Virus record (IMG/VR): IMGVR_UViG_3300045988_141580
DNA: 64,000 bases
Reading direction: 5' to 3' (one strand)
Source of the DNA: a virus
The position numbers and the translations under genes are program-made. Positions 1,617 to 31,701 of the stretch are shown one piece after another (the first letter of the stretch is position 1; each line of letters begins with the position of its first letter). The notes under the pieces were generated by a model. It ran no database searches. It had not been told where the DNA came from and was given only the letters and a program-made list of their open reading frames with translations.

Positions 1617-1630
1617 AACAAAATCATTTT

Positions 1631-2396: not shown

Positions 2397-2397
2397 A

Positions 2398-2925: not shown

Positions 2926-2956
2926 AACAAAATCATTTCTAACTTAATCAGACTGA

Positions 2957-4447: not shown

Positions 4448-6985
4448 TTACTTTTTTACAAACAATTCATCTGCCACACTTGCTCCAGTCTCACAGGCAA
4501 AAGCCTCATAGTCATCTGAACCCTCAGACTTCACAGTAAATTTATCATAGATGGCATCAACCACCTCAATTCTTATCTCAGTTGTTCCTGCTCCACCCGA
4601 CTTCGGACTAACACCCACCCAATTAGCATCAATGGCATCCAAAGCCCACTTCTTGGATGATACAGCCTGAACAGTAGCAGTTCCACCGTCATAAGGAATC
4701 TCAACCCTATGAGGAATAAATACAAACTCACCGCTTCGCTCAAATATGGCAAGCACATCAATCGGATCCACAAATCCCGTGACAGGGTAACTTACAGGAT
4801 TGGCGGTAAATTCCTCATAGTTTACTTCCCAGGACTTAAATGTAAACCCACTTGCGGCCACAGCCGTCAATGTCATTGTGGATCCAGGAGTGAGTGAACC
4901 ACCAACCTCAACTGTACCCCAACCGTTCTGATAAATGGAAACATTCACATCAACAGGCAGATTCAAAACCACTTCAACGAGCTTGTCATCAGTCATCTGC
5001 ACCGTGCCAACCTCACGAATTCCCTTCATCACAACATCCCAGTTCACGGTAACACCTGTCTCAATTTCAAATCGTATGTAGCCCTCTTCATCCGTTGCAC
5101 CTGACAGACCATTACTCAATGTCACAATAGCACCCTGAAGAGGAACTCCATTGATAGCCTTTGTCACAGCAAATGTTAGGTAATAAGATGAACGACGAAT
5201 ATAATCAAGCCACGCACCCCAGAAGACCTCCTTATAGGAAAGAAGATAATTCCTAATAAATAACTCTACATCCTTCTTGATTCTGGCGGAATTAATCTGC
5301 GAATAAATGGCTACAACATCCTTTGAACCCAAAAAACCCTGCCCCACTGGAGATATGGTCGTGACCATATCATTTCCAGCACCGTTCTTCCATGAATGTT
5401 CCTGCACTGGATACCCACCCATCAGCATAGGAACTGAATCACCAATAGATACATTGTATGTCTGATGTCTTGGAAAAAGATACAACGGCTTCACCGTCAC
5501 ACCACCAATCTGCATCGTGACACTGGACTGACCATCTTGAATAATGTATGGAGCCAGATATGCCGTACCATTGGCAAACTTCAAAGGCCTCCCACCATTA
5601 AAATTCAATGTTAAATTTAAATCCCTGTCAGCAAGCACGTTATAAATAACACCTCGTAACCTATACCACACGTTAGAAACAAGGCAAGGGCTATGATCAG
5701 CATCCCTATCAAAAAAGCTATCCGAAATTCGAAGATCAGTAAGGCCGACCTGTTTCAAAACTCCACCATTGGCATCAAAACAGTTAACACCAAAGTCAAT
5801 GTTCTGCGCACCACTTGATAAAGCCTTAACCCACACAGTCACCTCATAGTCCATTCCGGAATAAACCTCAACAGCCTTGGACTTGTTAGTGGAATATAGA
5901 CCACATCGCCCGGAACCTGTCTGAAAAACATACCCATCAGTCGTGTTGATTCTGGAAATACTGCCAACAACAGGATAGTTCTGCATAGAACCAACACCTT
6001 TCATCTCACTGCCACGAAGCCAATCCAAACCATAGTCCCACCCTTTTGAAACGGCATTCACTGATTCCGTGCCGTACCACATAGGAGAGGAATAACCGAC
6101 ACACCACCCAACATTACAAGGTTCCAGAACGGCAAATAGAAACTCACTTGGCCTACCATATCCAAGCAATCTGCGAAGCTCTCTGTTGGGCACACCCTCG
6201 TCAGCAATCTGCGAAGTGCCTCTCTCGCTAAACACCCCTATCCAATCATTGAAAATATTGGTTCGTTCCTCCTGAGTGAATATTGTCTCATATACAATAC
6301 ACCACTGCTCCAGAAACGTCTTCATCAAAACCTCACTGTCCTCTATTCTGCGATACTTTCGTCCATAGACCACTATTATCGCAAATAAATGAGTAATGGC
6401 CAAAAAGAAAGAATTAAAGTCATCAGCATTAATTCTGGAAATATAAATGGGAACAACTCCATGTATATACATCTTTTCAAGGACGTTCCAAGCCCACCCA
6501 ACAACATCCAGATCATTTACATCAAAGAAGCTTTTAAAGCCTGTTCTGTCATACACCACTGAATCAACAGGCTGCATTCCGTCTTCAACAGGCTCGGTAG
6601 ATTCACTTTCAGCACCAATGGTTATCTCCCACTCATCACTGGAAGATATGCCATTCTGCACTGGAGCACCACTGGACGGCATATTCAAAATGTCCTTATC
6701 AAAAAGGATCCTCCCTGAAGGAACTGAACCCTTAACCTTGGTTACATAGTCAAGCACCACCTCAAACGTATCCTTCATATCAAGACACGCCTTTAGAGAT
6801 TCATCATTGACAGTGAACCATTCAGTGTATGTCAGCCCACCGTCAAGCGAATATCTAAATAGGCTTCCGGAGTTAGCTCTCGCCATACGCATAACACAGA
6901 CAAGTCCAGCCAATGGGATTGACTGTGTCTTTACCGTGAATCCTGTCCCGACCTGCGGAAACTCCGCCAATACAAATGAAGCCAT
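4448..6985 (-). CDS. Tail fibre / receptor-binding protein with carbohydrate-binding-type modules
   Basis: 845 aa. CarboxypepD_reg-like segment (GVPLQGAIVTLSNGLSGATDEEGYIRF). InlB-B-repeat-like segment (GSTMTLTAVAASGFTFKSWEV). Complete BACON-like domain (IPYDGGTATVQAVSSKKWALDAIDANWVGVSPKSGGAGTTEIRIEV). Confidence 0.65.
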   Translation of the reverse strand: MASFVLAEFPQVGTGFTVKTQSIPLAGLVCVMRMARANSGSLFRYSLDGGLTYTEWFTVNDESLKACLDMKDTFEVVLDYVTKVKGSVPSGRILFDKDILNMPSSGAPVQNGISSSDEWEITIGAESESTEPVEDGMQPVDSVVYDRTGFKSFFDVNDLDVVGWAWNVLEKMYIHGVVPIYISRINADDFNSFFLAITHLFAIIVVYGRKYRRIEDSEVLMKTFLEQWCIVYETIFTQEERTNIFNDWIGVFSERGTSQIADEGVPNRELRRLLGYGRPSEFLFAVLEPCNVGWCVGYSSPMWYGTESVNAVSKGWDYGLDWLRGSEMKGVGSMQNYPVVGSISRINTTDGYVFQTGSGRCGLYSTNKSKAVEVYSGMDYEVTVWVKALSSGAQNIDFGVNCFDANGGVLKQVGLTDLRISDSFFDRDADHSPCLVSNVWYRLRGVIYNVLADRDLNLTLNFNGGRPLKFANGTAYLAPYIIQDGQSSVTMQIGGVTVKPLYLFPRHQTYNVSIGDSVPMLMGGYPVQEHSWKNGAGNDMVTTISPVGQGFLGSKDVVAIYSQINSARIKKDVELFIRNYLLSYKEVFWGAWLDYIRRSSYYLTFAVTKAINGVPLQGAIVTLSNGLSGATDEEGYIRFEIETGVTVNWDVVMKGIREVGTVQMTDDKLVEVVLNLPVDVNVSIYQNGWGTVEVGGSLTPGSTMTLTAVAASGFTFKSWEVNYEEFTANPVSYPVTGFVDPIDVLAIFERSGEFVFIPHRVEIPYDGGTATVQAVSSKKWALDAIDANWVGVSPKSGGAGTTEIRIEVVDAIYDKFTVKSEGSDDYEAFACETGASVADELFVKK

Positions 6986-11544: not shown

Positions 11545-11563
11545 AATTCACCCATTCTTTTAT

Positions 11564-11572
11564 GCAAAGATA
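11564..11572 (-). promoter_or_regulatory. Isolated Bacteroidota-type -7 box (TATCTTTGC)
   Basis: Matches TAnnTTTG 20 nt upstream of ATG 11544; no -33 element seen. Confidence 0.3.
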
Positions 11573-11577
11573 CAAAA

Positions 11578-12955: not shown

Positions 12956-12956
12956 A

Positions 12957-15674
12957 TTAAACCTCCTTAGAACTTACAATCTTATCTGATGAAAATACAG
13001 CAAGATTTCCTTCTCCTTCAAACAATTCTCCAGTTGATATGGTGGCACTCCACACATTTTTCACAAACTGCCTACGCCCCAAGAAAAAGTTAAAAACATC
13101 ACCCTCACGAGTAAGCGTGGTATTAAACTCCGTGTTGGCCACACCAGAGGTCAAGGCTTTTTTAAGTGCATCCTTAAGACCGTCTATATTCACGATATTA
13201 AAATAGTTATACTTCTCATTCGTGATATAGTCAACCACCATTCCTCGTTCAACGGTAAGCACTGTCTGTCTTTCCAAGCTGGATTCACTAAATGAAACAC
13301 TCTGCTGCACTCCCGTGACGTAAAATATCTCATTAGTGGCCTCAAGATGAACGAATGTTCCAACCTTAATACGTCTATCACCGTTAACGATTATCGTCCC
13401 CTTGCGAGTGAATGGGAGGTACGCTGTGCTCTCTATCGCATAAATATAATCAGCCGCCAAAGTGGTGAATAATGAATTCGTCTTCTCCTCTGACTTATTG
13501 CCACCAAGATAAGCGGAAAGCACATACGGATCCTGCACAATACATCGCTTATTTCCAAAGACCTTAACATAGGCATCCAAATAAAACACTGGAATAATAA
13601 TGGACACTGTATTGGCATCCAATCCAGGAATAAGCCCATCAGCCGGAACTATTTTATACCACGAATAAACCCTGTTATCAAATGACAGATTAAAGTTAAA
13701 CAAGTCCTCATCAGCAATGTCAATATAGGATTCAGCGGAAGCTCCTTGACTGTTCTTGGCATAATACATCGTCTGAATGGACGACTTGTCAAACGGTGGC
13801 TTGCGAATTATCAGGTCATACCCTGCACCCCAAGTGTCACCAAGTATCTCCACAAACGGCTCCTTGCACGTCGACCGAATGAAATCCGCTACACTGCCAT
13901 CAGGATTCACAAGAGCATTATTATAGAAGATTCTGCTGTCAAGTTGATTATCACACCATATCTTAAATAGCCGCCAGACACCCTTTGGATCAAAAGCTTC
14001 CTCGGCAGTCGCATCCAGATATCTATCACAAGCCTGAAATAAACCATTCGGAACCATCTCTATCTGGGAACACTTCTCAAAAATAAACCCAAGACTGGAC
14101 TTAATGGACTGAAAATACATTCCAAAGGCAATCATTCCGTCACCATTTCTACGAAGCCAAGGACTTTCATCACTTGTCATCAGCATCATATTATGGGCAG
14201 AACCAAATATGGAATTAAATGGAATAAAACTTATACCGTCATCTTCAAATAATTTCGAAAAATCTCTGCCCTCTATGGATACTGCATAGGAATCGCCATC
14301 ATAATTGATACTGCTTGTAACATTGTCCACAAAGCCAATCATATCCCAGATAAGCGAATCCGTCAAATCAGTGTTGGCCTTAACAAGTGAATCGTTACCA
14401 TCAACCTGATACTTCTTCTCCATCTGAAGTTCCTCAAACCGAAGCCAAACCATATCGTTCTGCTGCATAAAGACACTAAACCAATCCAATGTCTTAGAAT
14501 AGCCCAATGCCTTGTCCGCATCTGAATCATTATTCTTTCCTTTAAGTTCAACATCGGCATTAAACCTGTTCACTTCATTGTAATTGAATCCAGCAACATT
14601 CTTGGCTATCTTAACTGGATTAACCTGAATGGAAAATGAACCGTTAAAACCACTCTTGCTTGTGGAGGCAGAAAGAACATAGGGTGAAATATCCACAAGC
14701 CGCCCAAATGCCCTGCTCCAAACCCAAATCTTGGCATTAAGATTCTTCTGCTGCACCACAACATTCCCAAGTGGATTCTTCCACACAGACTGATATAGTG
14801 GGTCACTCGTTATCTTCTTTATGTTATCAGCCCAATACATCACAGCGGTCTTGTCTGGAACTGCAAACACATCAGAATTCTCAAATTTCACTCTTTGTGC
14901 CTCCAAATCCACAGACTTAACCAATAATCGTGTTCCCACCTTGACATAAGGCACTTTGCCGTTCTCAATATCAGCCTTGTACTTAATCTTTTCCGTAGGA
15001 GAGAACATCTCCACAATGCGTTCCAGATTTGTCTGATTACCGTCAGTGAACTCCAGCCAGTCCTCATTCGGCTTGCCGTCATCACCAAAGGTAAATCCAA
15101 GCTTCTTCAAGGCCTCATTAAGTTTCTCAATAGTAATGTTACCCTGCTCATCAGCACCGTCCGTCTTCTGCGTCGTATAAAGACAATATTGGCCTATCAC
15201 TTCGTTCACAGGAAATTCAACCTGAACATCAGCACCGTCAGATGAATCCTCCATCTTCTTCTGATGCTTTGCAACCCCAATATAGGAAATATGGACAAAC
15301 CCCTGCTTACTATAAGGAATTATCTGCGTATAGGGAACCCCAAGCTCGTCAACTTTCTTCATCACGGTCTCACAGTCAACCCGTTCCTTCTTACCATTCG
15401 TAACCTTATAAAAATTACAGTCAGCCGCACAACCTATCAAATGATGAGATGAATCCACTCCACCAACCTCCTTGTTCAACTGCTTTGACCTATATCCCGA
15501 GCTAATTATATTAATCCACCCTGTCGCATCATTTATGGGTTGCAAGGTAGATACACAGAGCCTTCGAATATTTGACTTATATTGCTCCGGAATGGAATTG
15601 TCCCACCCCTTTTTTGCCGCTGTTCCAGAACGTGAAAACTCGGCATAGGAATAATTCTTGCTTATATCACCCAT
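12957..15674 (-). CDS. Tail/baseplate hub protein with N-terminal peptidase M15 (VanY/L-Ala-D-Glu peptidase-like) domain
   Basis: 905 aa following the tape measure. SGYRSKQLNKEVGGVDSSHHLIGCAADC matches the SxxR...GG..S.H..G.A.D zinc-peptidase motif. Confidence 0.7.
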   Translation of the reverse strand: MGDISKNYSYAEFSRSGTAAKKGWDNSIPEQYKSNIRRLCVSTLQPINDATGWINIISSGYRSKQLNKEVGGVDSSHHLIGCAADCNFYKVTNGKKERVDCETVMKKVDELGVPYTQIIPYSKQGFVHISYIGVAKHQKKMEDSSDGADVQVEFPVNEVIGQYCLYTTQKTDGADEQGNITIEKLNEALKKLGFTFGDDGKPNEDWLEFTDGNQTNLERIVEMFSPTEKIKYKADIENGKVPYVKVGTRLLVKSVDLEAQRVKFENSDVFAVPDKTAVMYWADNIKKITSDPLYQSVWKNPLGNVVVQQKNLNAKIWVWSRAFGRLVDISPYVLSASTSKSGFNGSFSIQVNPVKIAKNVAGFNYNEVNRFNADVELKGKNNDSDADKALGYSKTLDWFSVFMQQNDMVWLRFEELQMEKKYQVDGNDSLVKANTDLTDSLIWDMIGFVDNVTSSINYDGDSYAVSIEGRDFSKLFEDDGISFIPFNSIFGSAHNMMLMTSDESPWLRRNGDGMIAFGMYFQSIKSSLGFIFEKCSQIEMVPNGLFQACDRYLDATAEEAFDPKGVWRLFKIWCDNQLDSRIFYNNALVNPDGSVADFIRSTCKEPFVEILGDTWGAGYDLIIRKPPFDKSSIQTMYYAKNSQGASAESYIDIADEDLFNFNLSFDNRVYSWYKIVPADGLIPGLDANTVSIIIPVFYLDAYVKVFGNKRCIVQDPYVLSAYLGGNKSEEKTNSLFTTLAADYIYAIESTAYLPFTRKGTIIVNGDRRIKVGTFVHLEATNEIFYVTGVQQSVSFSESSLERQTVLTVERGMVVDYITNEKYNYFNIVNIDGLKDALKKALTSGVANTEFNTTLTREGDVFNFFLGRRQFVKNVWSATISTGELFEGEGNLAVFSSDKIVSSKEV

Positions 15675-19053: not shown

Positions 19054-20688
19054 TTAGTTTCTGAGAAGGAATCCCGTAAAGAATATCTTCGTCACCTCGT
19101 TATTGAGAACAACCTCATAGGAAACATGATAACAGTCATCCACCCTCTTGGCAACAACATTCTGGAACCTCTGAATCAGGTTGTCCTGCTGATCCGTGGC
19201 CACCCTCGTCTGGAGGAAATTGGCTGTCCAGGTCTCAAGAGCGCCCTTTGACAGTGTGTTGATATTCACACCGTTCTCATCCCCAAGGAGATCAATGGAA
19301 GCATTCACGACACACTCCTTATTCAGTTGTGCGATGATACGCATAAACTGAATGCTGAATGACGCACCCTTTTTGTTGAAGAGCAACCTATTGTCCTGAA
19401 GAGTAGTAACACCCTGAAGAACCACGAACCTTTGAAGATATGGATTAGGATACACAACCACAAGACCGAACTTAAGAGCCTTCTCCATTTCCTTCTCGGT
19501 AGGAATGTGCTGAAGCTTGTCACCACCGATAGTCTTATTTGTCACTGGGATATAAGGTGGTTTTCCAGACACCCTGCCGACAATCTGACACAAATTATAG
19601 AACACCGTCCACCATCTAAATCCTGATGCCGTAGAGTCAGAAGCCGTGGCCACACCACCGTGAACAGCAACTATCCATTGATTGTTCATGGCCTTGGCCA
19701 CATTCAAAGAATCATTGAATTTTGCCTTTGTGCTGTACGCACCAACATAGACAAACTTGTCAAACTTCGCCTGTGTGTTACGATGAGCAATCACTTTCTT
19801 CTGTTGAGCGGAATTAGCATTAGCCTCAATCTGATCCGTGAACACAATGTTGTAGTCCACATCCGGAATGGCGTTAAGAAGATCATCAAGATCAGTCGGC
19901 TTGTAGTCTTCCGTGCCACCATCCGCAAGAACATAGGTGTCCAGTGTTGGATTAGTGATGGAATCACCGTCCGTGTAACGAGATTCAGCATCAAGAATAA
20001 ATCTTGCACCAAAGTTCTCGTCAACATTAGCCCACGCAATCAAATCCTGAATTGTCTTAACCTCAGGAGACTGACAGATAAGCAACGGCTCCGCCTGTGC
20101 AACAGTGAGCTCGTCATAGGATAGCGTCACTCCTGTCACAGGATCAGTGTAGTCGCCTGTGTAGGTTCCTCTCCAGAACTTCACCACAAAGGCTGATTCA
20201 TCATCAGTTCCTTGCTCTATCGTGTAGGCATAGCCATACTTCAGATATTCACCGTCAAGAACACCGTTGGCATTCAAGCCCTCGTCAATCGTCCTAACGA
20301 TAAACTTGCTGTTTCCGGAAGCAAACTGCATCTTCGCAGGAGTTGTCGTACAGGCACGAGCAAACAAAAGTCTGCTAATGCCAGCCGCATCCTGATTATA
20401 AGGGTCTGGAGTGAAAAGGGCTTCGGCAGCCTTCCAATACATACCGCCCTTAACAAAGTCTCTGAATGTCTGCAAGTCATCAAACTCGTAGACGGCATCC
20501 TTCCCCTGCTTGTCAACACCGTTCACGCCGGAGCCACCGCCCCAACCACCACCAAAAACTCCAGTGTCTATGAGGAGCACCGTGCCATAGTCAAGAGTTC
20601 TGGTCTGGGTGTTATCTCCGGAAGTGATGGTTGAGTACACCCCAGGGAGTGTCCTCATCTTACCGTTGAAATAAACACTTGTCGCCAT
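19054..20688 (-). CDS. Contractile tail sheath protein
   Basis: 544 aa; the N-terminal RTLPGVYSTI resembles the sheath PGVY motif; followed by the tube gene. Confidence 0.8.
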   Translation of the reverse strand: MATSVYFNGKMRTLPGVYSTITSGDNTQTRTLDYGTVLLIDTGVFGGGWGGGSGVNGVDKQGKDAVYEFDDLQTFRDFVKGGMYWKAAEALFTPDPYNQDAAGISRLLFARACTTTPAKMQFASGNSKFIVRTIDEGLNANGVLDGEYLKYGYAYTIEQGTDDESAFVVKFWRGTYTGDYTDPVTGVTLSYDELTVAQAEPLLICQSPEVKTIQDLIAWANVDENFGARFILDAESRYTDGDSITNPTLDTYVLADGGTEDYKPTDLDDLLNAIPDVDYNIVFTDQIEANANSAQQKKVIAHRNTQAKFDKFVYVGAYSTKAKFNDSLNVAKAMNNQWIVAVHGGVATASDSTASGFRWWTVFYNLCQIVGRVSGKPPYIPVTNKTIGGDKLQHIPTEKEMEKALKFGLVVVYPNPYLQRFVVLQGVTTLQDNRLLFNKKGASFSIQFMRIIAQLNKECVVNASIDLLGDENGVNINTLSKGALETWTANFLQTRVATDQQDNLIQRFQNVVAKRVDDCYHVSYEVVLNNEVTKIFFTGFLLRN

Positions 20689-20778: not shown

Positions 20779-20802
20779 CTGGAGTGAGAACACCCACTCC
20801 AG
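20779..20802 (-). terminator. Rho-independent terminator after the 748-aa gene
   Basis: 8-bp stem ctggagtg/cactccag with an 8-nt loop; on the minus strand it is followed by TTTGATTTAT. Confidence 0.6.
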
Positions 20803-20826
20803 CTCAACATAAATTTATAACAAGAA

Positions 20827-23073
20827 TCAGGATATTGTCCAATCTGCATTGGAAGTAATGGTAATTGCCTTACCCTCTCCATTGGCCACAAAGGACAATT
20901 CTGTCGGAGTGACATCCAATGATGCACTTACTCCAGCCTGATTGAACGTAACATCAGTGGTGGCCAACTTTGACCCCTCTCCAGTGGCCGTAACCATAAC
21001 CACAAAACCATTTCGAGGAGAGGTTGACGTATTCTGTGTCACAGTCACCGTCGCACCGCTAAGACTGAATCCAGTCTTGCTTGTCTTGACCTCATAAGCA
21101 AATGACACACTTCCTGCACGAGTGCTGCCTGATGTATAGCTTACAGTCTGACTTGCATTAGGTAATATCGTGCTTGAACCACCAGACGCTGGAATGGAGA
21201 CTGGAGTTGTGGCCGTAACAGAAACATCCCCATAGATGGCCTCATTGGCCCCCTGATAAACGGTGACTGAATCAGAACCAGACTTGCCGTTCAGCGTCAC
21301 GGTGGCTGTTAATGTTCCAACGCTTGACCTTAATTTTACTGTTGTGCCAAGACTGTCAGCACTCACAGGCGCTCCATAGGAAACCACCCCTCCAGATGTA
21401 ATTGTTGACAGTACTTCAGACGCTCCAGAAGTATAATACTGATTCTGACCTTGAGAATAGGTAACCGTACCACTGGAAATCATACCACCACTTGCTGGAA
21501 TATCATCATTAACAGTAAGTGAAACAGACGGAATGTCATACTCAATGGAAGTCTTCTGGTTCGCCTGTTGATAGACAGAAATGACAAAGGTCTCGTAAAC
21601 GCCAACTTCGATGGTAAACCTCACCCTAACATCAATTACATTCCTCCTGGATTTCATATTTGTACCCAGACTATCCGCTGTCACATAACCGTTGGACGTG
21701 TCAACTACGGCATTACTATACGAACTACCACCACCCCAGTACTTGCTATATGATATACTCATAGATTCACGAGAAATGGCCTCATAGGATCCAGATGTAT
21801 AACTCCAGTAACAAGGATAGTCCTTAATTGTAGGTATAGCCGCACCTCCATCAGCACCAATATCACTATAGGTAACAGGCTGTGAATTAAGTTTCAAAGT
21901 CTTATCGTTCGCTTCCTGATAGACATACATCATTCCTGAAGCTGACTCCCCACCATTTCCAGTCCAGGTAACAGCCTGAGACTTCACCAAGGTAATTTCA
22001 GAGACAGTCGTCCCCTTGGAAGAAACCGTGCCAGAAATAAAAGAAACTGATGGATCTATGGATTCATCTGTCGTCACAGCCTCTGACGTCTGTACTGTAT
22101 TGGTGGCTTCTGACGTATAGGTGTCAGTGCGATATGTGGCCGCAACAGTCTTGTTCTGAGAACCTTTTCCAGCCGTGGCCGTTCCAGTACCACCGCTTGC
22201 CGCAATGGTGGCGTTCGTGATGGTTCCAATGGACACACTACCATAGGTGACCTCCCCGCCTGAATCAACGGAACTCTCAACCTTGTTGGCTTCCTGTGAC
22301 ACTATTACGGTGGCAATGGTTCCTTGATATGAACCTGTCACGGTCGTTGACCGTGCGTCACCCACGGTGGTTCCACGAGTGCCGACTGACACAACATTTC
22401 CGGATGATACACTAAACACAGCACCTAACACAGTACATGTCGGAATAACGCTATCCGTTAAAATAAGCGAACCATTTCTGTACGTCCGTAACGTGCCTAA
22501 AATAGTGGACGAACCACCCTTTGCGGCAATCGTGGACACGGACGGTGAAAGCGTAAGTGTATAGGTGACAACAGAAGCGGCCTGATTCAATGTCCACGTC
22601 GCCTTTGCACCACTTGCTGTCGTAGCCGTAATCGTGAAACTAAGAGCTGATGTTCCAGTGTTTACAGGAACTGTCACTGATATGCTGAACTCATATTGAG
22701 AGGACGCTCCTGGGTCGCCTGTGATGACCACCCCATTGGTAGCTGTCGAGCCATTGACCGTATAGGATAACGAAACAATAACATCCGTAGAGCTTGAAGC
22801 AAATGTTAGTTTGGAAGAATTCGATAACCCACTCAGGGTAAGCGTCTGCCCCTCCCTGTCAACAGAGACAGACGCATCACCTGTAATGGATACAAACTCT
22901 TCAAGTGCTTTCTGCACCACTGTATATGAACGACTAACGGAAAGCCCCTTAACGGTGGCCGTCACACTCGTGGAACGTGTATTACGTCCTGTGTGATTCG
23001 TTCCAGTATTCGTCAAGGTGGCGTTCCCTGAGCCGGACATAGGATATACAGTAAGCCAAGATGATTTTGCCAT
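20827..23073 (-). CDS. Ser/Thr-rich multi-repeat BACON/Ig-like fibre or decoration protein
   Basis: 748 aa with about 6 repeats ending in V/Y-x-Q-x-A-N. The N-terminus is the second half of a BACON-like domain and the C-terminus is the first half. Confidence 0.65.
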   Translation of the reverse strand: MAKSSWLTVYPMSGSGNATLTNTGTNHTGRNTRSTSVTATVKGLSVSRSYTVVQKALEEFVSITGDASVSVDREGQTLTLSGLSNSSKLTFASSSTDVIVSLSYTVNGSTATNGVVITGDPGASSQYEFSISVTVPVNTGTSALSFTITATTASGAKATWTLNQAASVVTYTLTLSPSVSTIAAKGGSSTILGTLRTYRNGSLILTDSVIPTCTVLGAVFSVSSGNVVSVGTRGTTVGDARSTTVTGSYQGTIATVIVSQEANKVESSVDSGGEVTYGSVSIGTITNATIAASGGTGTATAGKGSQNKTVAATYRTDTYTSEATNTVQTSEAVTTDESIDPSVSFISGTVSSKGTTVSEITLVKSQAVTWTGNGGESASGMMYVYQEANDKTLKLNSQPVTYSDIGADGGAAIPTIKDYPCYWSYTSGSYEAISRESMSISYSKYWGGGSSYSNAVVDTSNGYVTADSLGTNMKSRRNVIDVRVRFTIEVGVYETFVISVYQQANQKTSIEYDIPSVSLTVNDDIPASGGMISSGTVTYSQGQNQYYTSGASEVLSTITSGGVVSYGAPVSADSLGTTVKLRSSVGTLTATVTLNGKSGSDSVTVYQGANEAIYGDVSVTATTPVSIPASGGSSTILPNASQTVSYTSGSTRAGSVSFAYEVKTSKTGFSLSGATVTVTQNTSTSPRNGFVVMVTATGEGSKLATTDVTFNQAGVSASLDVTPTELSFVANGEGKAITITSNADWTIS
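22705..22731. repeat. 27-nt exact direct repeat, copy 1 (cgctcctgggtcgcctgtgatgaccac)
   Basis: Identical to 24166..24192; encodes VVITGDPGA in both paralogues. Confidence 0.9.
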
Positions 23074-23083
23074 AATACACCCC

Positions 23084-23395
23084 TTATTCTATTGTCCAAT
23101 TGCCAGTAGTCGTGATTTGAATGGTCTTTCCAGAAGTTGGATCATCTGTAAAACTCAATGAAGTAGGACTGACTTCCAAAGTATCAACGGATCCTCCAGA
23201 AGCCTTTTTAACAGCATCCAGATTCACAAACCAAGCCCCTTGATAGGAAGCAAGGCTCGTCTCGTCGAACTTGCCTGTTCTGACAAGCTCGCTCTTGCGA
23301 ACAAAGGCCGTCGCAGAAATGCCGATGTCAGTCGGAGTGATACCCCCGATATCAGCCGCTTGCTTGGCCGTCGCGAAAGGTCTAAGTTCCGCCAT
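23084..23395 (-). CDS. Small protein ending in a first-half BACON-like segment
   Basis: 103 aa, C-terminus TLEVSPTSLSFTDDPTSGKTIQITTTGNWTIE. Its stop lies 10 nt before the ATG of the 748-aa gene. Confidence 0.7.
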   Translation of the reverse strand: MAELRPFATAKQAADIGGITPTDIGISATAFVRKSELVRTGKFDETSLASYQGAWFVNLDAVKKASGGSVDTLEVSPTSLSFTDDPTSGKTIQITTTGNWTIE

Positions 23396-23398
23396 ACG

Positions 23399-23614
23399 CT
23401 ACTTCGTGTTTCCAGCCCCACCCTGTGCATCGACAAACTTGGTAAAAACAATGTTCCCGGACACAGAGTTGATCTTATCAATAATCTGTTGACCTGTAAG
23501 ATTCGCCAGAATCTGCTCGGAGGTCATAATGCTGGAAGGATTATTCTTCCAACTGCGAACCTGCTCAATTGCAGCATCCACTTCAGCTCCAGTAAATTTT
23601 GATTTGTATGCCAT
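23399..23614 (-). CDS. Small fibre-associated hypothetical protein
   Basis: 71 aa. The N-terminal KFTGAEVDAAIEQV resembles fibre N-terminal motifs. Confidence 0.55.
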   Translation of the reverse strand: MAYKSKFTGAEVDAAIEQVRSWKNNPSSIMTSEQILANLTGQQIIDKINSVSGNIVFTKFVDAQGGAGNTK

Positions 23615-23656
23615 AATCTAAGATATTAAAACAATTTTTCATTAAAAATTATAGTG

Positions 23657-23842
23657 TTACTGCTCCTTCAGCACCCCATAGGGGGAATCATCAGCCACAA
23701 GCATCGAATCTTCATCACCCATAGGTATAAACGGCTCACGCAGACCAAGATGAACAACAACAAAAGAATCCTCCGCTGGAAGAGTTCCTTCAGTCAATCT
23801 GCCTGTGATTTTCACCTCTCTGTCAAATTCCTCATTTATCAT
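23657..23842 (-). CDS. Small acidic hypothetical protein
   Basis: 61-aa ORF downstream of the terminator hairpin. Confidence 0.45.
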   Translation of the reverse strand: MINEEFDREVKITGRLTEGTLPAEDSFVVVHLGLREPFIPMGDEDSMLVADDSPYGVLKEQ

Positions 23843-23863
23843 GGTCCCCCTCCTTAATTAAAA

Positions 23864-23892
23864 GAGGGGTGGGGTAATATGCCCCACCCCTC
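23864..23892 (-). terminator. Strong rho-independent terminator after the 210-aa BACON-like gene
   Basis: Perfect 11-bp GC-rich stem gaggggtgggg/ccccacccctc with a 7-nt loop; on the minus strand it is followed by TTTTAATTAA. Confidence 0.8.
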
Positions 23893-23925
23893 ATTTTGTC
23901 GAATAAACACCTATTCCCAAAGGCA

Positions 23926-24558
23926 CTACGAGAGTGTCCAGGCGGTGTTGGACTTGATGCCCTGAGATACAGCCTCACCGCTTGCCTCGATAGTGATGCT
24001 TTCCTTGTCGAAGCTGAAGGTAGGATCTCCGGCTGTCTGCTTAATGGTGATCTGAGCGGTGGCTGCATTGTCACCTGCCGTAACAGCAAGAGCACACTGA
24101 AGCTCATTGATAGTAAGGTTCTCAGCGATACCTGTAAAGGTAATGCTAAACTCATACTCTGCTGCCGCTCCTGGGTCGCCTGTGATGACCACATTGTTGG
24201 TGGTGGCTGCACCTGCTGCTGTGTAGGATTCAGGAAGAGTAAGGGAAAGATCGTTGACCGTACCCTCTGCGTTGTCAACAAGACTGAACGCAAGTTTAGC
24301 GGAATTGGACTTACCCTTAATGGTGAGAGAACCACCATCCTTGCCGACAGTAATCTCCGTGCCATTGTCAAAGGACACGAACTCAGGCTTCGGCTTCTGA
24401 ATTACGGAATAAGTTTTGTTAGGAGATACTCCAGTGGCTACACCTGTAACAGTTGTAGTTCTCTGCACACGTCCAGTGTGGACGGTGGCTGTGTTCTGTA
24501 CGGTTGCATTACCCTGTCCTGATGTAGGACTTAGAGTCAACCAAGCTGCTTTTGCCAT
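23926..24558 (-). CDS. BACON/Ig-like decoration or fibre protein (paralogue of the 748-aa protein)
   Basis: 210 aa. N-terminus MAKAAWLTLSPTSGQGNATVQNTATVHTGRVQRTTTV. C-terminus SITIEASGEAVSQGIKSNTAWTLS. Has its own -7 box and a strong terminator, which suggests high expression. Confidence 0.7.
   Translation of the reverse strand: MAKAAWLTLSPTSGQGNATVQNTATVHTGRVQRTTTVTGVATGVSPNKTYSVIQKPKPEFVSFDNGTEITVGKDGGSLTIKGKSNSAKLAFSLVDNAEGTVNDLSLTLPESYTAAGAATTNNVVITGDPGAAAEYEFSITFTGIAENLTINELQCALAVTAGDNAATAQITIKQTAGDPTFSFDKESITIEASGEAVSQGIKSNTAWTLS
24166..24192. repeat. 27-nt exact direct repeat, copy 2
   Basis: Identical to 22705..22731. Confidence 0.9.
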
Positions 24559-24622
24559 AGAACAAAAAGATTTAATTAAACACTATAATAAAACTTGTAA
24601 AAAGTTCCTTCCTTTATATAAC

Positions 24623-24631
24623 GCAAATATA
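24623..24631 (-). promoter_or_regulatory. -7 box TATATTTGC upstream of the 210-aa gene
   Basis: ACTATATTTGC on the minus strand, 65 nt before ATG 24558. The same extended word occurs at 38153, 42463 and 45973. Confidence 0.4.
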
Positions 24632-24651
24632 GTTATAAAACATATTCCTCA

Positions 24652-25530
24652 CTACTCAAGCGTCCATGTTGTCTGCGCCATCACTGTCTGCTCACCATAA
24701 TTCTCATTATTCAAATAAAGAATGTCCACACCAAAGTTGAATAATTCGCCACCGTACTCCAAAACCCAGTCCGTATTCGACAGAATACCCATATCACCCT
24801 CTGCCACCAGAGCATCCAGCCACAGATACGGATTGGTGAAGAAAAAATACTTCCCAATCGGCTCCGGCTCCGGCATTTCAAAATCACTGACAGGAATAGG
24901 TGACTCAAACTTCACACACGACATCAAGTCCTGACGTATAAGTGAAGCACAATCCTCACTCTCGGTAACATCTATGGAAACCGTCTTTATAATAACAGGC
25001 AGAGGAAACAAACTATTCTCAGCCACAAGCTCAGACGTGGAGAACGAAAAGTTTAGAAACTCCTCCTCAAAGATGTTCCTCGCCCCCTGCAACAAGGCAT
25101 AAAGCACCTCCCCCATCAACAGTGATTCCATAGGATTATCACTAAAGCACATCAGGTTCACCTTTGAATTGCTTGTCACACTAAATGCTTCCCTCTGATA
25201 TCCAGGGGCACCAAACGAACTCTCCGGATCACCGATTCCTCCCAGTGGATTGGGCTGTGTCTGCTGACGTGACGGCTCTCGAACCACAATACACGGAAGA
25301 GCCACCTTATCCTTCGGATATTCCAGTGTGACAGCCACCTTACGAGAACTCTCATTGGTTCGCAGAAACATCTTTCTGGCCTGTTCATAGAAGTCAAAGC
25401 TCCCGTCCCGAGCACCCCAAAACATCTGATATAGAAATGTCTGTGTCTCAGGAATTCCACTGTTATAATCTCGCTGAATATAGTCAATCAGCCCTAAGAC
25501 AAGTCTCTTAATTCTCGCTACAAGTATCAT
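24652..25530 (-). CDS. Hypothetical neck/head-proximal structural protein
   Basis: 292 aa. The C-terminus carries ILSNTDWVLE and a terminal TTWTLE, resembling the first-half BACON ending. Confidence 0.65.
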   Translation of the reverse strand: MILVARIKRLVLGLIDYIQRDYNSGIPETQTFLYQMFWGARDGSFDFYEQARKMFLRTNESSRKVAVTLEYPKDKVALPCIVVREPSRQQTQPNPLGGIGDPESSFGAPGYQREAFSVTSNSKVNLMCFSDNPMESLLMGEVLYALLQGARNIFEEEFLNFSFSTSELVAENSLFPLPVIIKTVSIDVTESEDCASLIRQDLMSCVKFESPIPVSDFEMPEPEPIGKYFFFTNPYLWLDALVAEGDMGILSNTDWVLEYGGELFNFGVDILYLNNENYGEQTVMAQTTWTLE

Positions 25531-27091: not shown

Positions 27092-27140
27092 ATTCTGGAT
27101 ATTTTATAATAATTTTCACGAATTTTCTATTTTGTTCATT

Positions 27141-27169
27141 GTGATTCCAAGAAATCACGTTATATTTGC
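27141..27169 (+). promoter_or_regulatory. Plus-strand copy of the phage promoter cassette
   Basis: TGTGATTCCAAGAA-N7-TATATTTGC. Spacing is identical to the 43401 copy (CCAAGAA-N7-TAnnTTTGC). Confidence 0.5.
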
Positions 27170-27174
27170 AGCGT

Positions 27175-27298
27175 AACAAGGTTGTAATGAGTAAGTACAG
27201 GTTCATTACGTAAATTTAGAGAGCATGACGCTTTAAGCAAATTCCTAAATTCCTTAATATAAGCCAGACAAAAATCAATAGTTTGTCTGGTTTATTTG
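27175..27298 (+). ncRNA. Candidate ~120-nt small RNA (promoter to terminator, no ORF above 8 codons)
   Basis: Bounded by the 27141 promoter and the 27264 hairpin plus T-run. Internal hairpin gtaatga/tcattac. Confidence 0.3.
27264..27290. terminator. Bidirectional hairpin overlapping the stop of the 470-aa gene
   Basis: 9-bp stem ccagacaaa/tttgtctgg with a 9-nt loop; followed by TTTATTTGTT on the plus strand. Confidence 0.6.
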
Positions 27299-28687
27299 TT
27301 CATAATGACTACGTCGCACATTTTCGTCTTCAATAATTTTGGAATTCCTACCCCTCGAAGAATCATAAGAAGTCAAAATAAAATGCCGCACAACTTGATT
27401 CCCATATAAATCCTTAGACACTTCCACACTAATAACAAAAGATTCACCTTTTTGATTAAGCAATTCATACGCTCCATTCCTTTCATTAAATTTTACCTCA
27501 AATGAAGAAGAATCTTTTTGAAACCTAATCAAATTATAAGTAAGTACGTCTTCCGCATTTTTAATGGATGAAAAATCATTCTGTTGAACAAAATGTCGCA
27601 AAAGGATATGTTTTAGACCTTTATCTGCATCACCCCAAACCATATCTATTGAGGTCTCAACCATTAACGGTTCCCCTCCAACTTGATAAACTTGATAAGG
27701 CCTACCATTTTCATCAATATCTATTGCTGGAAGATTTATTTTTACAACATCGTATGCTTGACCAGTTTTTCTTCTAAAAAGTGCCTTAAAAGCTTGTCGA
27801 GGATCACCAACAAAATCCCTAAAAATCTGTCCATATCTTCCTCTAACAAATTTATCTTTTACATCATCATACCAATACCTCCATCGCCCATTACGCCATT
27901 CACGACGAATGTACTTATAGGACTTCATTAGGTATCGCTCCGTAAGATTTAGGAACACGGACTTCTTCACTTCATGCTCCTTACGATGCCATTCCAGCCA
28001 AGCGTAGGACGGCTTCGTTCTGCCATAACCATTCTTCTTCTGCGCCCATTCATAAGCATAGGCTCCACCGCCTAAATCAACTGCATAGATATCAGTCCAT
28101 TCAGGGTGCTTTGCTGCAAATTCCTCAGATTTGGCATAGGTGCGCTCATTTCTTCCAAATTCCTTACCCTTAAAATCACCTGAAATTGATTCCCAGTAGT
28201 TATCCAGTTCCTGCTCCTTCTGACGACGCCTATCCATTTCTTCCTCACGCTTTCGAGCTCGCTCCTGAATAGCATCATAATGTTCCTTCGCATAATCAGC
28301 AAGTTTCTTCACATCTGAATCATAGGTAAAGAAATCCTCATTCATAACACGATGTATATTCGTAACAGAATGATCGCTGATTCTAAACTTTAGACCATAG
28401 CCCTGAACATAGGTGCTAACACCAAAGTCTGTAATTGAACGACTGATATAGAATTCACCAAGACCACGCTTCTTCAACGCTGAAAGCAATTCCTGAGCCT
28501 TGACGTACTGCTGATCAGAGACACGTTCCTGTGCTCTACGTCGTGCCAGACGTTCATCCTGCTCCTGCCGCATTCTCTGCTCAGACACACCATAACGCTG
28601 ACCAACACGCCCAAGCCTACGATTCTCAGGTGTATTGGCATATATACCAGAACGTGCCTTGAGGAATATTTCAGTCAATGTTAGCAT
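27275..28687 (-). CDS. NRRLGRVG-motif protein with C-terminal putative nuclease/toxin-like domain
   Basis: 470 aa. N-terminus SGIYANTPENRRLGRVGQRYG. Contains YKYIRREWRNGRWRYWY. C-terminal GLKHILLRH segment (possibly PBECR-like; unverified). Confidence 0.6.
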   Translation of the reverse strand: MLTLTEIFLKARSGIYANTPENRRLGRVGQRYGVSEQRMRQEQDERLARRRAQERVSDQQYVKAQELLSALKKRGLGEFYISRSITDFGVSTYVQGYGLKFRISDHSVTNIHRVMNEDFFTYDSDVKKLADYAKEHYDAIQERARKREEEMDRRRQKEQELDNYWESISGDFKGKEFGRNERTYAKSEEFAAKHPEWTDIYAVDLGGGAYAYEWAQKKNGYGRTKPSYAWLEWHRKEHEVKKSVFLNLTERYLMKSYKYIRREWRNGRWRYWYDDVKDKFVRGRYGQIFRDFVGDPRQAFKALFRRKTGQAYDVVKINLPAIDIDENGRPYQVYQVGGEPLMVETSIDMVWGDADKGLKHILLRHFVQQNDFSSIKNAEDVLTYNLIRFQKDSSSFEVKFNERNGAYELLNQKGESFVISVEVSKDLYGNQVVRHFILTSYDSSRGRNSKIIEDENVRRSHYEQINQTNY

Positions 28688-30183: not shown

Positions 30184-31701
30184 TTAAAGGGTAGGAAGAC
30201 CAATCTTACCGATATTGATGATACGAGCGATCTTTCCTGGCTGATAGAGCACTGGAGTACCGTAATTCAGCACGGAGAATGATCTTCTCGGGCCGACAAT
30301 GGCATAATCCAGCTTCATCGTGCCGCCGAGCTCAAGATATTCAAGCATCTCGGATCCGTTGAAGTAAACGAGAGCGGACTTTGTTCCAGCGATCCACCTG
30401 TTGCGGTCGTGAACTGAACCTGCCTCCGCACCATCCCATCCTGCCACAAGCTCAGTCTTGGACACCTTAAAGATAGGATAGAAGTCAGCAACGTTCTTGT
30501 CGGCTGGATTGGCTTCTGTACGATAGATAACATAACAGGTCTCAGGATATGCGGATGATACAGCCCCTGTAAACTTTAAGGCCACGGACTGTGTTGCGCC
30601 TACCGCCTGTGCGTCATCGTTGAGAAGCACGAGCTCTGACTCACCATATCTATTGACGGCTGCAACTGCATAGAAATAGTTTCCAGCGTGCATTGTACCA
30701 AACTGACCCTTTGCATCAACGGCCACTGACACGGCTGCTGCACCATCCTTAACTGGAGCGTTTGGAGCCTTGTCAGAGGTCTTGCCACGACCGAGCTTAA
30801 CTGGAGCGTTCCAATCAAAGTACTTGTCGGCCTTGATGGCAACCTTACCGAACTGTGTCGTGATATCATTAACGGACTGACCCATAGTAGCACCTACGAC
30901 GCCACCCTGCATTCCGACAATGACACGCTTTGATTCGTGGAAGAGCTTAACATAATTGTTGAATACGACTGGGGAGGAAACAATGCGATCGATGATACCG
31001 TTTCGGTCGTTGACGACAGCCTGTGCAGCATCCTCAACAAGAGCGTCAGTAAGAACCGAGCCATTCGCATTGATAACAGCCACGTCACCGAAGTATGCGT
31101 CAAGCACCTGCTCTGAAGTCTTGCCAAGCAGACCACCTGTGATATCATTGATACCTGCAACGTGCTGTGCGAACACACCGTCAAACTCCTCCGGAACCTT
31201 GTTGGAATCAGCGTCGATGACTTTCTTGTCCAGAATCGTCTGAAGAAGAATGGTCTTGTTCTCGACTTCCTTCGTGTAGAGCGAGCCCACAACGGTCTTC
31301 ACAATCATTCCCGGATGAGTTACCTGTCCAGTAACGCCTGTGAACTTCACAACTACTGACTTACGCCTGTAGATGGAATCGGTCTCGGTAGGGGTCTCGC
31401 CCTCAACGTTGAAGATACCGACCTCCTGGCCGTACTTGTAGAGCTGATTGTACTGATGTACGGTGTTTTCGATCCTCTGTCTTCCGAGTTCATTCCAGAA
31501 AACAAGCTGATCAAGCCTGTTCTCGAGGTTCTTGAGAACTCCATCCAGAGATTCCGGCTTCAAGCCGCCACCGTTGTTGAGCTGATTGTCGTACTGCATT
31601 CCAGTCAGCAGACCAGCTTCCATCGCTTTGAGAATCTCCTCTGAGGACATTGACTCAAGCGGATTGGCATTTTCGTTGCCTGTGTAGTTGAACAAATCCA
31701 T
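30184..31701 (-). CDS. Major capsid protein
   Basis: 505 aa. Position after protease and scaffold, strong terminator downstream. ESLDGVLKNLENRLDQLVFWNELGRQRIENTVHQYNQL resembles capsid-family N-terminal regions. Confidence 0.75.
   Translation of the reverse strand: MDLFNYTGNENANPLESMSSEEILKAMEAGLLTGMQYDNQLNNGGGLKPESLDGVLKNLENRLDQLVFWNELGRQRIENTVHQYNQLYKYGQEVGIFNVEGETPTETDSIYRRKSVVVKFTGVTGQVTHPGMIVKTVVGSLYTKEVENKTILLQTILDKKVIDADSNKVPEEFDGVFAQHVAGINDITGGLLGKTSEQVLDAYFGDVAVINANGSVLTDALVEDAAQAVVNDRNGIIDRIVSSPVVFNNYVKLFHESKRVIVGMQGGVVGATMGQSVNDITTQFGKVAIKADKYFDWNAPVKLGRGKTSDKAPNAPVKDGAAAVSVAVDAKGQFGTMHAGNYFYAVAAVNRYGESELVLLNDDAQAVGATQSVALKFTGAVSSAYPETCYVIYRTEANPADKNVADFYPIFKVSKTELVAGWDGAEAGSVHDRNRWIAGTKSALVYFNGSEMLEYLELGGTMKLDYAIVGPRRSFSVLNYGTPVLYQPGKIARIINIGKIGLPTL

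Follow-up and report, generated by a model that had tools for sequence, protein, structure and literature searches.

Background

The BACON domain, a small fold of the sugar-binding type, has so far been described in Bacteroidota glycoside hydrolases and crAss-like phage proteins (Mello 2010; de Jonge 2019, PMC6949934), always as an uninterrupted unit that occurs singly or in tandem arrays. Apjok et al. (2026, PMC13370021) reported that BACON/Ig-like proteins displayed on phage K1F result in epithelial binding and longer gut retention; these are independent adhesins with whole domains, and no link between subunits was proposed. In chaperone-usher pili (PapD/FimC with pilins), type V pili of Bacteroidota and TasA fibres, a segment of the neighbouring subunit completes an incomplete Ig-like fold, which produces head-to-tail non-covalent chains. 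One fold is likewise made from two chains in 3D domain swapping, split GFP and SpyCatcher-type split Ig-like domains.

In the present study, we analyzed a phage locus in which the BACON domain appears to be cut at gene boundaries. The locus lies in the window, that is, the whole 64,000-nucleotide stretch of virus DNA analyzed. Once the halves are joined, they fall into the same sequence family as the described BACON domains, which share the ecological setting (gut Bacteroidota phages), and intact versions also occur in fused relatives of the proteins studied here. The adhesins of Apjok et al. come from the same phage groups and are the same kind of BACON/Ig-like protein beside structural genes; in the supplements searched, no sequence match was found between their constructs and the proteins B or D (see below). 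Their findings bear indirectly on possible carbohydrate or mucin binding by the proteins of the present locus. We found no mention of a BACON domain divided between genes in de Jonge 2019, Benler 2021, the crAss001 structural atlas or Apjok 2026.

Results and discussion

Half-domains at the ends of virion proteins

The features of the locus are listed in Table 1. All four open reading frames, genes A to D, and all peptide strings quoted in a previous sequence-only reading of the window were confirmed on the minus strand. That reading claimed that two proteins start with the second half of a BACON domain, and indeed the second half of BACON_2 stands at residue 1 of the 210-aa (B) and 748-aa (D) proteins, Pfam placing their N-termini at positions 40-92 of 94, from residue 3. 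It also saw a first half at four C-terminal ends, which was confirmed for the 103-aa (C), 748-aa and 210-aa proteins but not for the 292-aa protein (A), the C-terminal end of which is only weakly similar to the BACON first half.

We propose that the BACON Ig-like domain would be encoded here as two pieces on different polypeptides, cut in the loop between strands C and C' (4+4 strands). The first piece of about 32 aa (strands A, A', B and C) would close one protein, and the second piece of about 56 aa (C', E, F and G) would open another at Met1. In the general topology of the Ig sandwich, each piece would give strands to both sheets, and thus neither should fold alone; the two pieces would co-fold into one domain, joining the proteins non-covalently, head to tail. 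The clearest pair in the window would be C and, 10 nt further on, D, with C as a likely anchor or adaptor having the first half only and D as a string of Ig-like repeats. In the second pair, A or B would probably supply the first half to the N-half of B. The C-terminal first halves of B and D could accept either the next subunit, so that a homotypic chain would form, or a cap protein of the type found in crAss-like phages; alternatively, they could fold back onto their own N-half before assembly. A point against this scheme is that first halves (on B, C, D and perhaps A) outnumber second halves (on B and D) in the window; thus, either some first halves stay unpaired or homotypic chains form.

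Table 1. Positions of the genes, putative BACON halves and other elements of the locus in the window
Feature	Position	Strand	Remarks
Gene A, 292 aa	24652..25530	-	ORF; virion-module protein, downstream of head-completion-like genes
A_C, putative first half, weak	24655..24744	-	ends ...LFNFGVDILYLNNENYGEQTVMAQTTWTLE; joined-profile score, C-half HMM
Internal copy of the A_C motif	24757-24831	-	SNTDWVLE; sequence
A-B intergenic spacer, 93 nt	24559..24651	-	sequence
Gene B, 210 aa	23926..24558	-	order: BACON second half, Ig-like body, BACON first half
B_N, second half (C', E, F, G), residues 1-56	24391..24558	-	MAKAAWLTLSPTSGQGNATVQN...YSVIQK; BACON_2 40-90, BACON 8-61
B_C, first half, residues 177-210	23929..24030	-	...DPTFSFDKESITIEASGEAVSQGIKSNTAWTLS; joined-profile match; homology to fused relatives
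Strong terminator-like hairpin right after gene B	23864..23892	-	11-13 pairs, 9 G-C, then T run
ORF E, 61 aa	23657..23842	-	ortholog of 82-86-aa proteins in relatives
ORF F, 71 aa	23399..23614	-	ORF; N-terminus MAYKSKFTGAEVD...
Gene C, 103 aa	23084..23395	-	conserved N-terminal segment, then BACON first half; without second half
C_C, first half (A, A', B, C)	23087..23188	-	...TLEVSPTSLSFTDDPTSGKTIQITTTGNWTIE; joined-profile match
C-D junction	23074..23086	-	TAA, 10 nt including GGGGTG, ATG of D; sequence
Gene D, 748 aa	20827..23073	-	second half, variable string of other Ig-like repeats, first half
D_N, second half, residues 1-57	22903..23073	-	MAKSSWLTVYPMSGSGNATLTN...YTVVQKA; BACON 9-61 of 61, BACON_2 40-92 of 94
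D_C, first half, paralog of C_C	20830..20931	-	...SLDVTPTELSFVANGEGKAITITSNADWTIS; joined-profile match
Hairpin between gene D and the sheath gene	20782..20807	-	sequence
Sheath gene	19054-20688		phrog_279
Contiguous BACON-like stretch in 845-aa fibre	4562..4690	-	residues 766-808; marginal BACON_2

Gene A, the synteny of which is kept in L005-L038, has two first-half-like motifs near its C end. Its sole match, to SP10_terminator, is weak (E 0.24), and none was found in the PDB, even with a 10-sequence profile. Against a custom C-half HMM, A_C gave an E value of 0.36, and three related genomes (L020, L023 and L036) lack the terminal motif. In the spacer between A and B, TATATTTG fits the published consensus of the Bacteroides -7 box (TAnnTTTG) and may belong to a promoter. 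Gene B represents a family of 1812 homologs (734 clusters at 50% identity), mostly of 197-226 aa, that align end to end; across these clusters, down to 32% identity, the proteins open with the N-half at residue 1 and finish with the C-half. With Foldseek, the top PDB match of the B model was a donor-strand-complemented CfaB pilin fusion, a generic Ig similarity.

ORF E is also an ortholog of the crAss-like 'cap' proteins of 80-99 aa that open with a BACON second half, and it shares with its orthologs the tails ...GVLKE and ...NVLKNG. In the window, it is shortened to a remnant resembling strands F and G, most of the second half having been lost, and the version of the window family is not recognized by Pfam. 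ORF F shares its N-terminus with longer, fibre-like proteins that occupy the corresponding position of crAss-like loci (L043 7838-8374; L041 2086 onwards). Gene C encodes 177-295 aa in the relatives.

Profile matches of the joined termini

In the window, the BACON halves do not make up a single contiguous domain; one reading frame stops, a spacer follows, and a new start codon opens the second half. The fibre peptide previously taken as an uninterrupted internal control is present, but its BACON_2 match is marginal (E 0.16, profile 19-63). We compared the joined termini with the Pfam profiles BACON_2 (PF19190, 94 positions, cut-off 25 bits) and BACON (PF13004, 61 positions). The unjoined window proteins score 18.6-20.1 bits with the second half of BACON_2 only, none reaching the cut-off, and the N-halves by themselves score 17.7 and 24.3 bits. 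When the C-terminal and N-terminal segments were concatenated, full-length matches above the cut-off were obtained for C_C+D_N (35.1 bits, 2-92 of 94), D_C+D_N (32.0 bits) and D_C+B_N (39.0 bits), and B_C+B_N scored 27.9 bits over positions 4-89. A_C+B_N reached 26.0 bits, but over profile positions 30-89 only, with A_C adding about 2 bits. With shuffled C-halves, only the second half of the profile was matched (14.4-16.0 bits in the C+D series and 21.9-28.8 bits in the D_C+B_N series), and with the halves in the wrong order, the match was confined to positions 40-92. The C-halves of C and D contribute 10-20 bits above chance, and the last 36 aa of C by themselves match positions 2-30. In Pfam terms, the C-half of B adds little, yet its homolog in the fused relatives P0127, P0145 and P0207 is the first half of the contiguous BACON. 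Furthermore, C_C+D_N aligns over the junction with the BACON of a sulfatase of solved structure (9s8x_A), and concatenations from L043 and L039 likewise give full-length BACON_2 matches.

The split might be only apparent if readthrough, frameshifting or stop-codon reassignment fused the reading frames, or if it arose from sequencing errors or pseudogenes. Stop-codon recoding is known for some gut phages, and in one relative (L005) the gap between C and D is 9 nt and in frame. However, the C-D gaps of the relatives (9, 10, 12, 14, 21, 25 and 26 nt) cover frames 0, 1 and 2, and TAA, TAG and TGA all terminate these genes; thus, recoding is excluded. The A-B gap ranges between 47 and 103 nt, every downstream gene starts with an ATG of its own, with the purine-rich GGGGTG just upstream of D, and the identical layout is found in dozens of independent assemblies. 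We consider an artefactual or recoded split hardly credible, and the C-D junction has the form of an ordinary coupled operon junction, with D in a different frame.

Conservation, gene adjacency and natural fusions

The four-gene layout is kept in 25 distinct related genomes (Flandersviridae-like myoviruses), despite the variation of D from 355 to 1390 aa. The same rule of adjacency was observed in independent lineages: the first half ends the upstream gene, and the second half starts the next gene. It applies to L039 (411 aa, then 307 aa), L041 (456 aa, then 89 aa), L048, L054, L069 and L087, as well as to cr111_1 and cr127_1 in GenBank. In crAss-like phages, the split-BACON genes are adjacent and tightly coupled, and in L043/L044, which encode proteins of 113, 201 and 80 aa, the stop-start junctions are TAAtATG and TAATG. 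A pattern scan of IMG/VR gave 44 in-frame junction candidates, 37 of which have both halves. Wherever a protein has a single half, the adjoining gene always encodes the other one, and the order is correct.

One possible explanation of this arrangement is that the coding segments of the half-domains are mainly recombination linkers (homology arms) for swapping the variable bodies, the peptide halves being unpaired flexible tails. This would be in line with the different sizes of the D bodies (355 to 1390 aa) among phages whose flanks are almost identical, and with the homology between the C-terminal 110 aa of C and the C-terminal 105 aa of D. It would also be in line with L027, in which D_N is replaced by the B_N type and C_C and D_C are identical, W-x-I/V-S having changed to WELS in both (a single event). 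Within a genome, C_C and D_C show 47-100% identity with indel states in common; they evolve in concert, and this co-variation, with the joint switch in L027, also speaks for reconstitution of BACON from the halves. However, it is the protein sequence that is conserved, at the signature residues of BACON (W, G-x-G, N, R and Q) and down to 32% identity, unrelated lineages keep both the order of the halves and the precise position of the cut in the C/C' loop, and a normal BACON occupies that position in fused relatives. Linkage by recombination as the main role of the halves seems improbable to us, and module exchange is more likely a by-product of the split BACON than an alternative to it.

In the fused relatives, an intact BACON is found exactly where two units meet, and orphan halves remain at the outer ends. 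In P0127, P0145, P0207 and P0133, the N-half is followed by a body, the contiguous BACON, another body and the C-half, and their junction BACON matches BACON_2 2-92 of 94 with 30-40 bits. In P0182, an unrelated 250-aa part is joined to a B-like unit by an uninterrupted stretch resembling BACON, which scores 20.3 bits with BACON_2 and thus stays under the cut-off. Fusion of C with D was not found among the C homologs, all of which are short. Together with the profile matches and the conservation among relatives, these fusions support the earlier claim that the terminal segments are complementary halves of one BACON domain.

Complementary termini could also meet within the same chain, so that the N-half and C-half of B, or of D, form one BACON by circular permutation; in that case, C and A would have their first halves as unrelated leftovers or as pieces with a transient 'chaperone' role. 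Both halves are present in most family members, and a stand-alone B-like gene of the 210-aa type, without partner genes, occurs in L042. The AF2 monomer model of B is compact (mean pLDDT 80.7, pTM 0.70) with strands in both terminal segments, and in the model of P0127 the terminal C-half displays all four strands (A, A', B and C); both models are compatible with pairing of the termini inside one chain. However, B_N (strands at 7-11, 18-22, 33-39 and 48-54) is the least confident part of the B monomer (pLDDT 57-74). The most confident region of P0127 is the junction BACON (pLDDT 79-89), with eight strands and the cut point in the C/C' loop. Furthermore, C, the 80-99-aa caps and the 307-aa protein cannot complete themselves because each has one half only, and self-closure does not explain why such proteins lie beside genes for the complementary half. 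Nor does it explain the fused relatives, in which the contiguous BACON connects two different units rather than the ends of one, and closure of a string of Ig domains of 748-1390 aa would be geometrically demanding. We regard closure within the chain as unlikely; completion between subunits, the other hypothesis of the sequence-only reading, fits the comparative data better, both in the adjacency of the half-genes and in the junction BACON of the fusions.

Comparison with known systems

From the sequence comparisons, it is fairly probable that two polypeptides together rebuild one BACON domain from their halves and that appendage subunits are linked head to tail in this way, and the split at gene boundaries probably serves to snap virion proteins together into chains. 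We infer physical pairing of the halves, a chain architecture, a location in neck or fibre appendages of the virion and a role as adhesins. The proteins with a single half resemble the initiator or adaptor and the terminator of donor-strand systems, which may have one of the two elements. However, donor-strand systems donate one beta-strand, whereas in the phage proteins about half a domain (four strands) would come from each partner. Donor-strand subunits are secreted; the phage proteins are virion parts with the BACON fold, assembled in the cytoplasm. Unlike the loci of donor-strand pili, the phage locus has no chaperone, usher or protease: no genes for a periplasmic chaperone or an outer-membrane usher were found at the locus, the neighbours being sheath, tube, capsid and other virion genes. 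Donor-strand complementation would thus be an analogy of mechanism, not a class to which these proteins belong.

Domain swapping allows both closed (self) and open-ended (runaway) forms, comparable to self-closure and chain formation of the phage proteins. However, swapped and split systems are engineered or come from a protein also able to fold as a monomer, whereas in the phage system several natural proteins have one half only, and gene boundaries fix the position of the cut genetically. The split BACON would be fold complementation of a form not found in the literature searched.

Conclusions

More tentatively, gut Bacteroidota phages, both Flandersviridae-like myoviruses and Crassvirales, may generally use half-BACON ends as plug-and-socket connectors, a possibility that we leave in near balance, with each gene boundary in these operons encoding a nicked Ig-like domain that would be reassembled 4+4. 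If so, anchors, variable adhesin or fibre modules and small caps could be chained, swapped by recombination, and fused or split in evolution. This would be an undescribed way of building virion appendages, and it could explain what holds the poorly resolved fibre assemblies of crassviruses together.

BACON halves at the protein termini

Judged by sequence, the ends of the structural proteins studied here are a BACON domain when joined. The sequence-only reading had proposed that proteins B (210 aa) and D (748 aa) start with the second half of such a domain, and that these two as well as proteins A (292 aa) and C (103 aa) end with the first half; every peptide string that it quoted was found in the window. 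In B and D, the N-terminal 55 residues align from residue 3 to positions 40-92/94 of the Pfam model BACON_2 (PF19190), below threshold, and also cover nearly the entire shorter Pfam BACON model. When a C-terminal end was joined to an N-terminal start, the BACON_2 scores (cut-off, 25 bits) were 35.1 bits for C with D (profile 2-92), 32.0 for D with D, 39.0 for D with B and 27.9 for B with B, the first three being full-length matches and the last nearly so. The N-terminal halves without a C-terminal half scored 17.7 and 24.3 bits, and with shuffled C-terminal halves (four each) 14.4-16.0 and 21.9-28.8 bits, the match being confined to the second half of the profile. In the native (wrong) order of the halves, the match was confined to positions 40-92. 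Furthermore, the joined C-D sequence aligns unbroken over the junction to the C-terminal BACON of a sulfatase with a solved structure (NWTIE-MAKSSWLTV vs PWTVSC-DQPWVTV). Thus, for both C and D the first half is well supported as a BACON sequence.

The end of B was marginal by Pfam, yet the intact BACONs of relatives with fused units have a first half homologous to it. The end of A, also proposed as a first half, is not independently supported; it added about 2 bits, aligned to profile positions 30-89 only, and is absent from three related genomes. The uninterrupted copy in an 845-aa fibre, put forward as an internal control, is present, but its BACON_2 match is marginal (E 0.16).

Gene order and adjacency of complementary halves

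These genes belong to the late structural operon of a phage with a contractile tail, and strong hairpins follow B and D.

Features of the late structural operon, listed from the capsid to the tube
Feature	Position	Strand	Basis
Capsid	30184-31701	-	SU10_MCP
264-aa virion protein	between capsid and 257-aa protein	-	phrog_1004
257-aa protein	between 264-aa virion protein and A	-	gene order
A, 292 aa	24652-25530	-	
B, 210 aa	23926-24558	-	
E, 61-aa ORF	23657-23842	-	
F, 71-aa ORF	23399-23614	-	
C, 103 aa	23084-23395	-	
D, 748 aa	20827-23073	-	
Sheath	19054-20688	-	phrog_279
Tube	after sheath	-	gene order

Megablast of the region found no close relative among GenBank phages; 38 related loci were found in IMG/VR, from contigs of about 60-110 kb. 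The group fits the myoviruses near the proposed Flandersviridae, which infect Bacteroidota (Benler 2021; Apjok 2026, PMC13370021). Protein A had no nameable match in Pfam, PHROGs or NCBIfam, or by phmmer against the PDB or profile search. Upstream of the virion module, a 470-aa protein (27275-28687, minus strand) has a weak C-terminal match to PBECR1, a Barnase/EndoU/ColicinE5-like nuclease (23 bits, below the cut-off), and its counterpart in some relatives is 226-282 aa long. In the close relatives L005 (4403-5122 and 6720-7481), L008 (5753-6547) and L009 (6907-7482), homing-endonuclease genes of the GIY-YIG (+NUMOD) type lie between structural genes; the window has none at the corresponding sites, for example in the 183-nt gap at 27092-27274.

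Wherever the context was visible, a gene ending in a first half directly preceded a gene starting with a second half. At locus L039, a B homolog (P0127, ...NVSWTVS*) is followed after 13 nt by a 307-aa protein that starts MAESWLHYTPSQGTGS... and has no first half at its own C-terminal end; at L041, another homolog (P0182, ...TDWEIL*) is followed by an 89-aa protein with a second half at its start. The crAss-like loci L043 and L044 carry genes for 113 aa (...ESNVNWTIQ*), 201 aa (B-like) and 80 aa (MEKNGIIVSPSSGSGN...), with the stop-start junctions TAAtATG and TAATG. This three-gene module holds two first and two second halves in exact balance and, on its sequence, would give two reconstituted domains. 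The joined junctions of L043 and L039 gave full-length BACON_2 matches (30.2 and 27.9 bits). Adjacent halves were also found in the GenBank crassviruses cr111_1 (126, 209 and 99 aa) and cr127_1 (70 and 211 aa), whose B-like gene is annotated as "lipocalin-like protein, BACON binding domain", and more junction types were seen in L054/L069, L087 and L048. Elsewhere in the genome, L054/L069 have an extra split-BACON pair, a 225-aa protein with both halves and then a 220-aa protein starting MAKPDW..., with no counterpart in the window by tblastn. The L043 locus also contains a 1085-aa gene (269-3526) with faint intein and LAGLIDADG matches.

A scan of IMG/VR with a degenerate DNA pattern for "WT[ILV]x-stop-(1-30 nt)-MAKxxW" matched 59 stretches; 44 were in-frame junction candidates, and HMMs found both halves in 37 of these. 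Since about 40 matches would be expected by chance on a rough estimate, the HMM filter matters.

Recoding or readthrough of adjacent ORFs was ruled out by the frames of the gaps and by the usage of stop codons. The C-D junction (...AAT TGG ACA ATA GAA TAA ggggtgtatt ATG GCA AAA) has a purine-rich spacer between the stop and the next start, which is in a different frame. In relatives this gap is 9, 10, 12, 14, 21, 25 or 26 nt, so that each of the three frames occurs, and the A-B gap is 47-103 nt; genes here end with TAG, TAA and TGA alike.

Natural fusions and predicted structure

Several B relatives are about double-length (P0127, 411 aa; P0145, 428 aa; P0207, 433 aa; also P0255 and P0270), and P0133 is a fusion of four units. 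The fused order is N-terminal half, body, contiguous BACON, body and C-terminal half, and the fusion junction matches BACON_2 at 2-92/94 with 30-40 bits. P0182 combines an unrelated 250-aa part with a B-like unit that keeps the first half at its end; the link between the two is a contiguous BACON-like stretch (BACON_2, 20.3 bits, below the cut-off). As read from these "Rosetta-stone" sequences, phages differ in whether this junction is covalent or split, and where it is covalent, the BACON connects two different units, not both ends of one unit. Low-sensitivity searches found no fusion of C with D (the joined C-D query gave four C-like matches, and the C query five short proteins).

The AF2 model of native B (42-sequence alignment) had a mean pLDDT of 80.7 and a pTM of 0.70, with the body at 84-96, the C-terminal half at 78-84 and the N-terminal half weakest at 57-74. 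Foldseek gave generic Ig-like matches in the PDB and, in BFVD, viral proteins that were unannotated or labelled 'cellulase' or 'BACON'. For the natural tandem P0127 (shallow alignment of five sequences; mean pLDDT 72.5, pTM 0.37), the contiguous junction BACON at 174-257 was the best-predicted part, with pLDDT blocks of 79-89. Its first half is predicted to form strands A (174-177), A' (180-183), B (189-196) and C (200-205), and its second half C' (210-213), E (220-226), F (235-242) and G (251-257); thus, the cut in the split proteins would fall in the C/C' hairpin loop, leaving four strands to each partner. In an Ig sandwich, strand B is paired with E, strand C with both F and C', and A' with G. 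By analogy with this general topology, both sheets would draw strands from each half, and neither half would be expected to fold by itself.

The sequence-only reading had offered two explanations, namely that a circularly permuted protein closes upon itself or that the C-terminal half of one subunit completes the N-terminal half of the next. Self-closure of B-type proteins is possible before assembly, or where B stands alone as in L042; the compact model of the B monomer and the four strands predicted in the terminal C-half of P0127 are compatible with such pairing within a monomer. However, in the covalent fusions the joined partners are separate units, not the two termini of a single unit. 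Self-closure and the formation of chains could also occur side by side, on the pattern of open-ended domain swapping. While the identity of the termini as complementary halves of BACON was borne out, pairing between subunits is favoured but unproven.

Conservation and variation of the module

The layout of A-like, B-like (both halves), C-like (first half only) and D-like (both halves) genes recurs across 25 distinct related genomes. B was also the query of an exhaustive search, which gave 734 clusters at 50% identity (E <= 0.001). Most of these are 197-226 aa long and align end to end, even where identity falls to 32%; a second half placed at Met1 and a first half at the very C-terminus are therefore deeply conserved. 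Among relatives, C is 99-295 aa and D 355-1390 aa, the latter through gain or loss of internal Ig-like repeats. D differs in size even between phages with nearly identical flanking genes (the window versus L014, L009 and L020), by repeats of about 105-115 aa; domain ends of the type ...V(Y)Q.AN. recur in the window's D. Half-domain HMMs built here matched D at its termini only, so the internal repeats are a different Ig-like unit, and an out-of-phase BACON array was rejected for D.

The ends of C and D are paralogous, the last ~110 aa of C matching the final ~105 aa of D. Within a genome, their similarity (mean 0.64) is on a par with that of orthologs from different genomes (0.61), and their indel state (NVxSW vs NxxW) is common to both in every genome. 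The penultimate residue of A and B is always Leu (W-x-L-E/S), whereas C and D have Ile or Val except in L027, where a B-type N-terminal half replaces the first 44 aa of D, and C and D both read NWELS. This single event shows the pattern that contact between the final strand of the first half and the initial strand of the second would produce. In the mosaic relative L027 (IMGVR_UViG_3300045988_148533, 10001-15577), the long D begins with 44 aa identical to the N-terminal half of the same genome's B, and C and D do not differ over their last 34 aa, which indicates recent gene conversion among these segments.

E is the ortholog of 82-86-aa proteins in relatives (e.g., L025, 10648-10905) and of 80-99-aa crAss-like cap proteins that start with a BACON second half (L043, 7606-7848), and all share the tail ...GVLKE / ...NVLKNG. 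In the window's clade, E is truncated to an F/G-strand-like remnant just past a strong terminator hairpin. When E of the window family was tried as a partner of the B C-terminal half, Pfam did not recognise it. F starts MAYKSKFTGAEVD..., a motif that also heads longer fibre-like proteins of 178 and >523 aa (L043, 7838-8374; L041, 2086-3657), which occupy the relative position of F in crAss-like loci; this motif may serve as a conserved segment by which fibre proteins dock.

A putative split-domain connector

The reading best supported by the sequences is that the two halves, carried by different polypeptides, reconstitute one domain and so act as a connector. An anchor that has a first half only (C, perhaps A) would capture the N-terminal half of a module (D, or B), and the module's own first half could accept another module or a small cap. 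The count in the window is unbalanced, with first halves on B, C, D and doubtfully A and second halves on B and D only; therefore, homotypic chains or free ends must be assumed.

The proposed mechanism resembles donor-strand complementation in pili. However, the window locus has no chaperone or usher, and half a domain is supplied rather than one strand; we therefore regard the similarity as analogy, not membership. To our knowledge, every described BACON is contiguous, whereas the split halves of the window are not. Neither a split BACON nor a split Ig-like connector is described in de Jonge 2019 (PMC6949934), Benler 2021, the crAss001 atlas or Apjok 2026, or was found by keyword search, and the split-BACON N-termini had no match in the supplements of Apjok 2026. 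As coverage of the literature was incomplete, the split BACON is provisionally regarded as a new variant of a known principle.

Related BACON/Ig-like proteins mediate adhesion to epithelium and mucus (Apjok 2026). From this phenotype and from synteny we infer the virion location and function of the module. If the split BACON is a natural fold complementation with half a domain per partner, it could serve as a handle for protein ligation or phage display. If it is a connector, current annotations as "lipocalin-like", "cellulase" or "glycosyl hydrolase family 5" would be corrected, and it would give a guide to searching the flexible, unresolved fibre densities in reconstructions of crassviruses. 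Split BACONs are widespread among dominant gut phages, and the hypothesis is directly testable; such a connector would explain both the mounting of variable adhesin or fibre modules on the virion and their exchange between phages.
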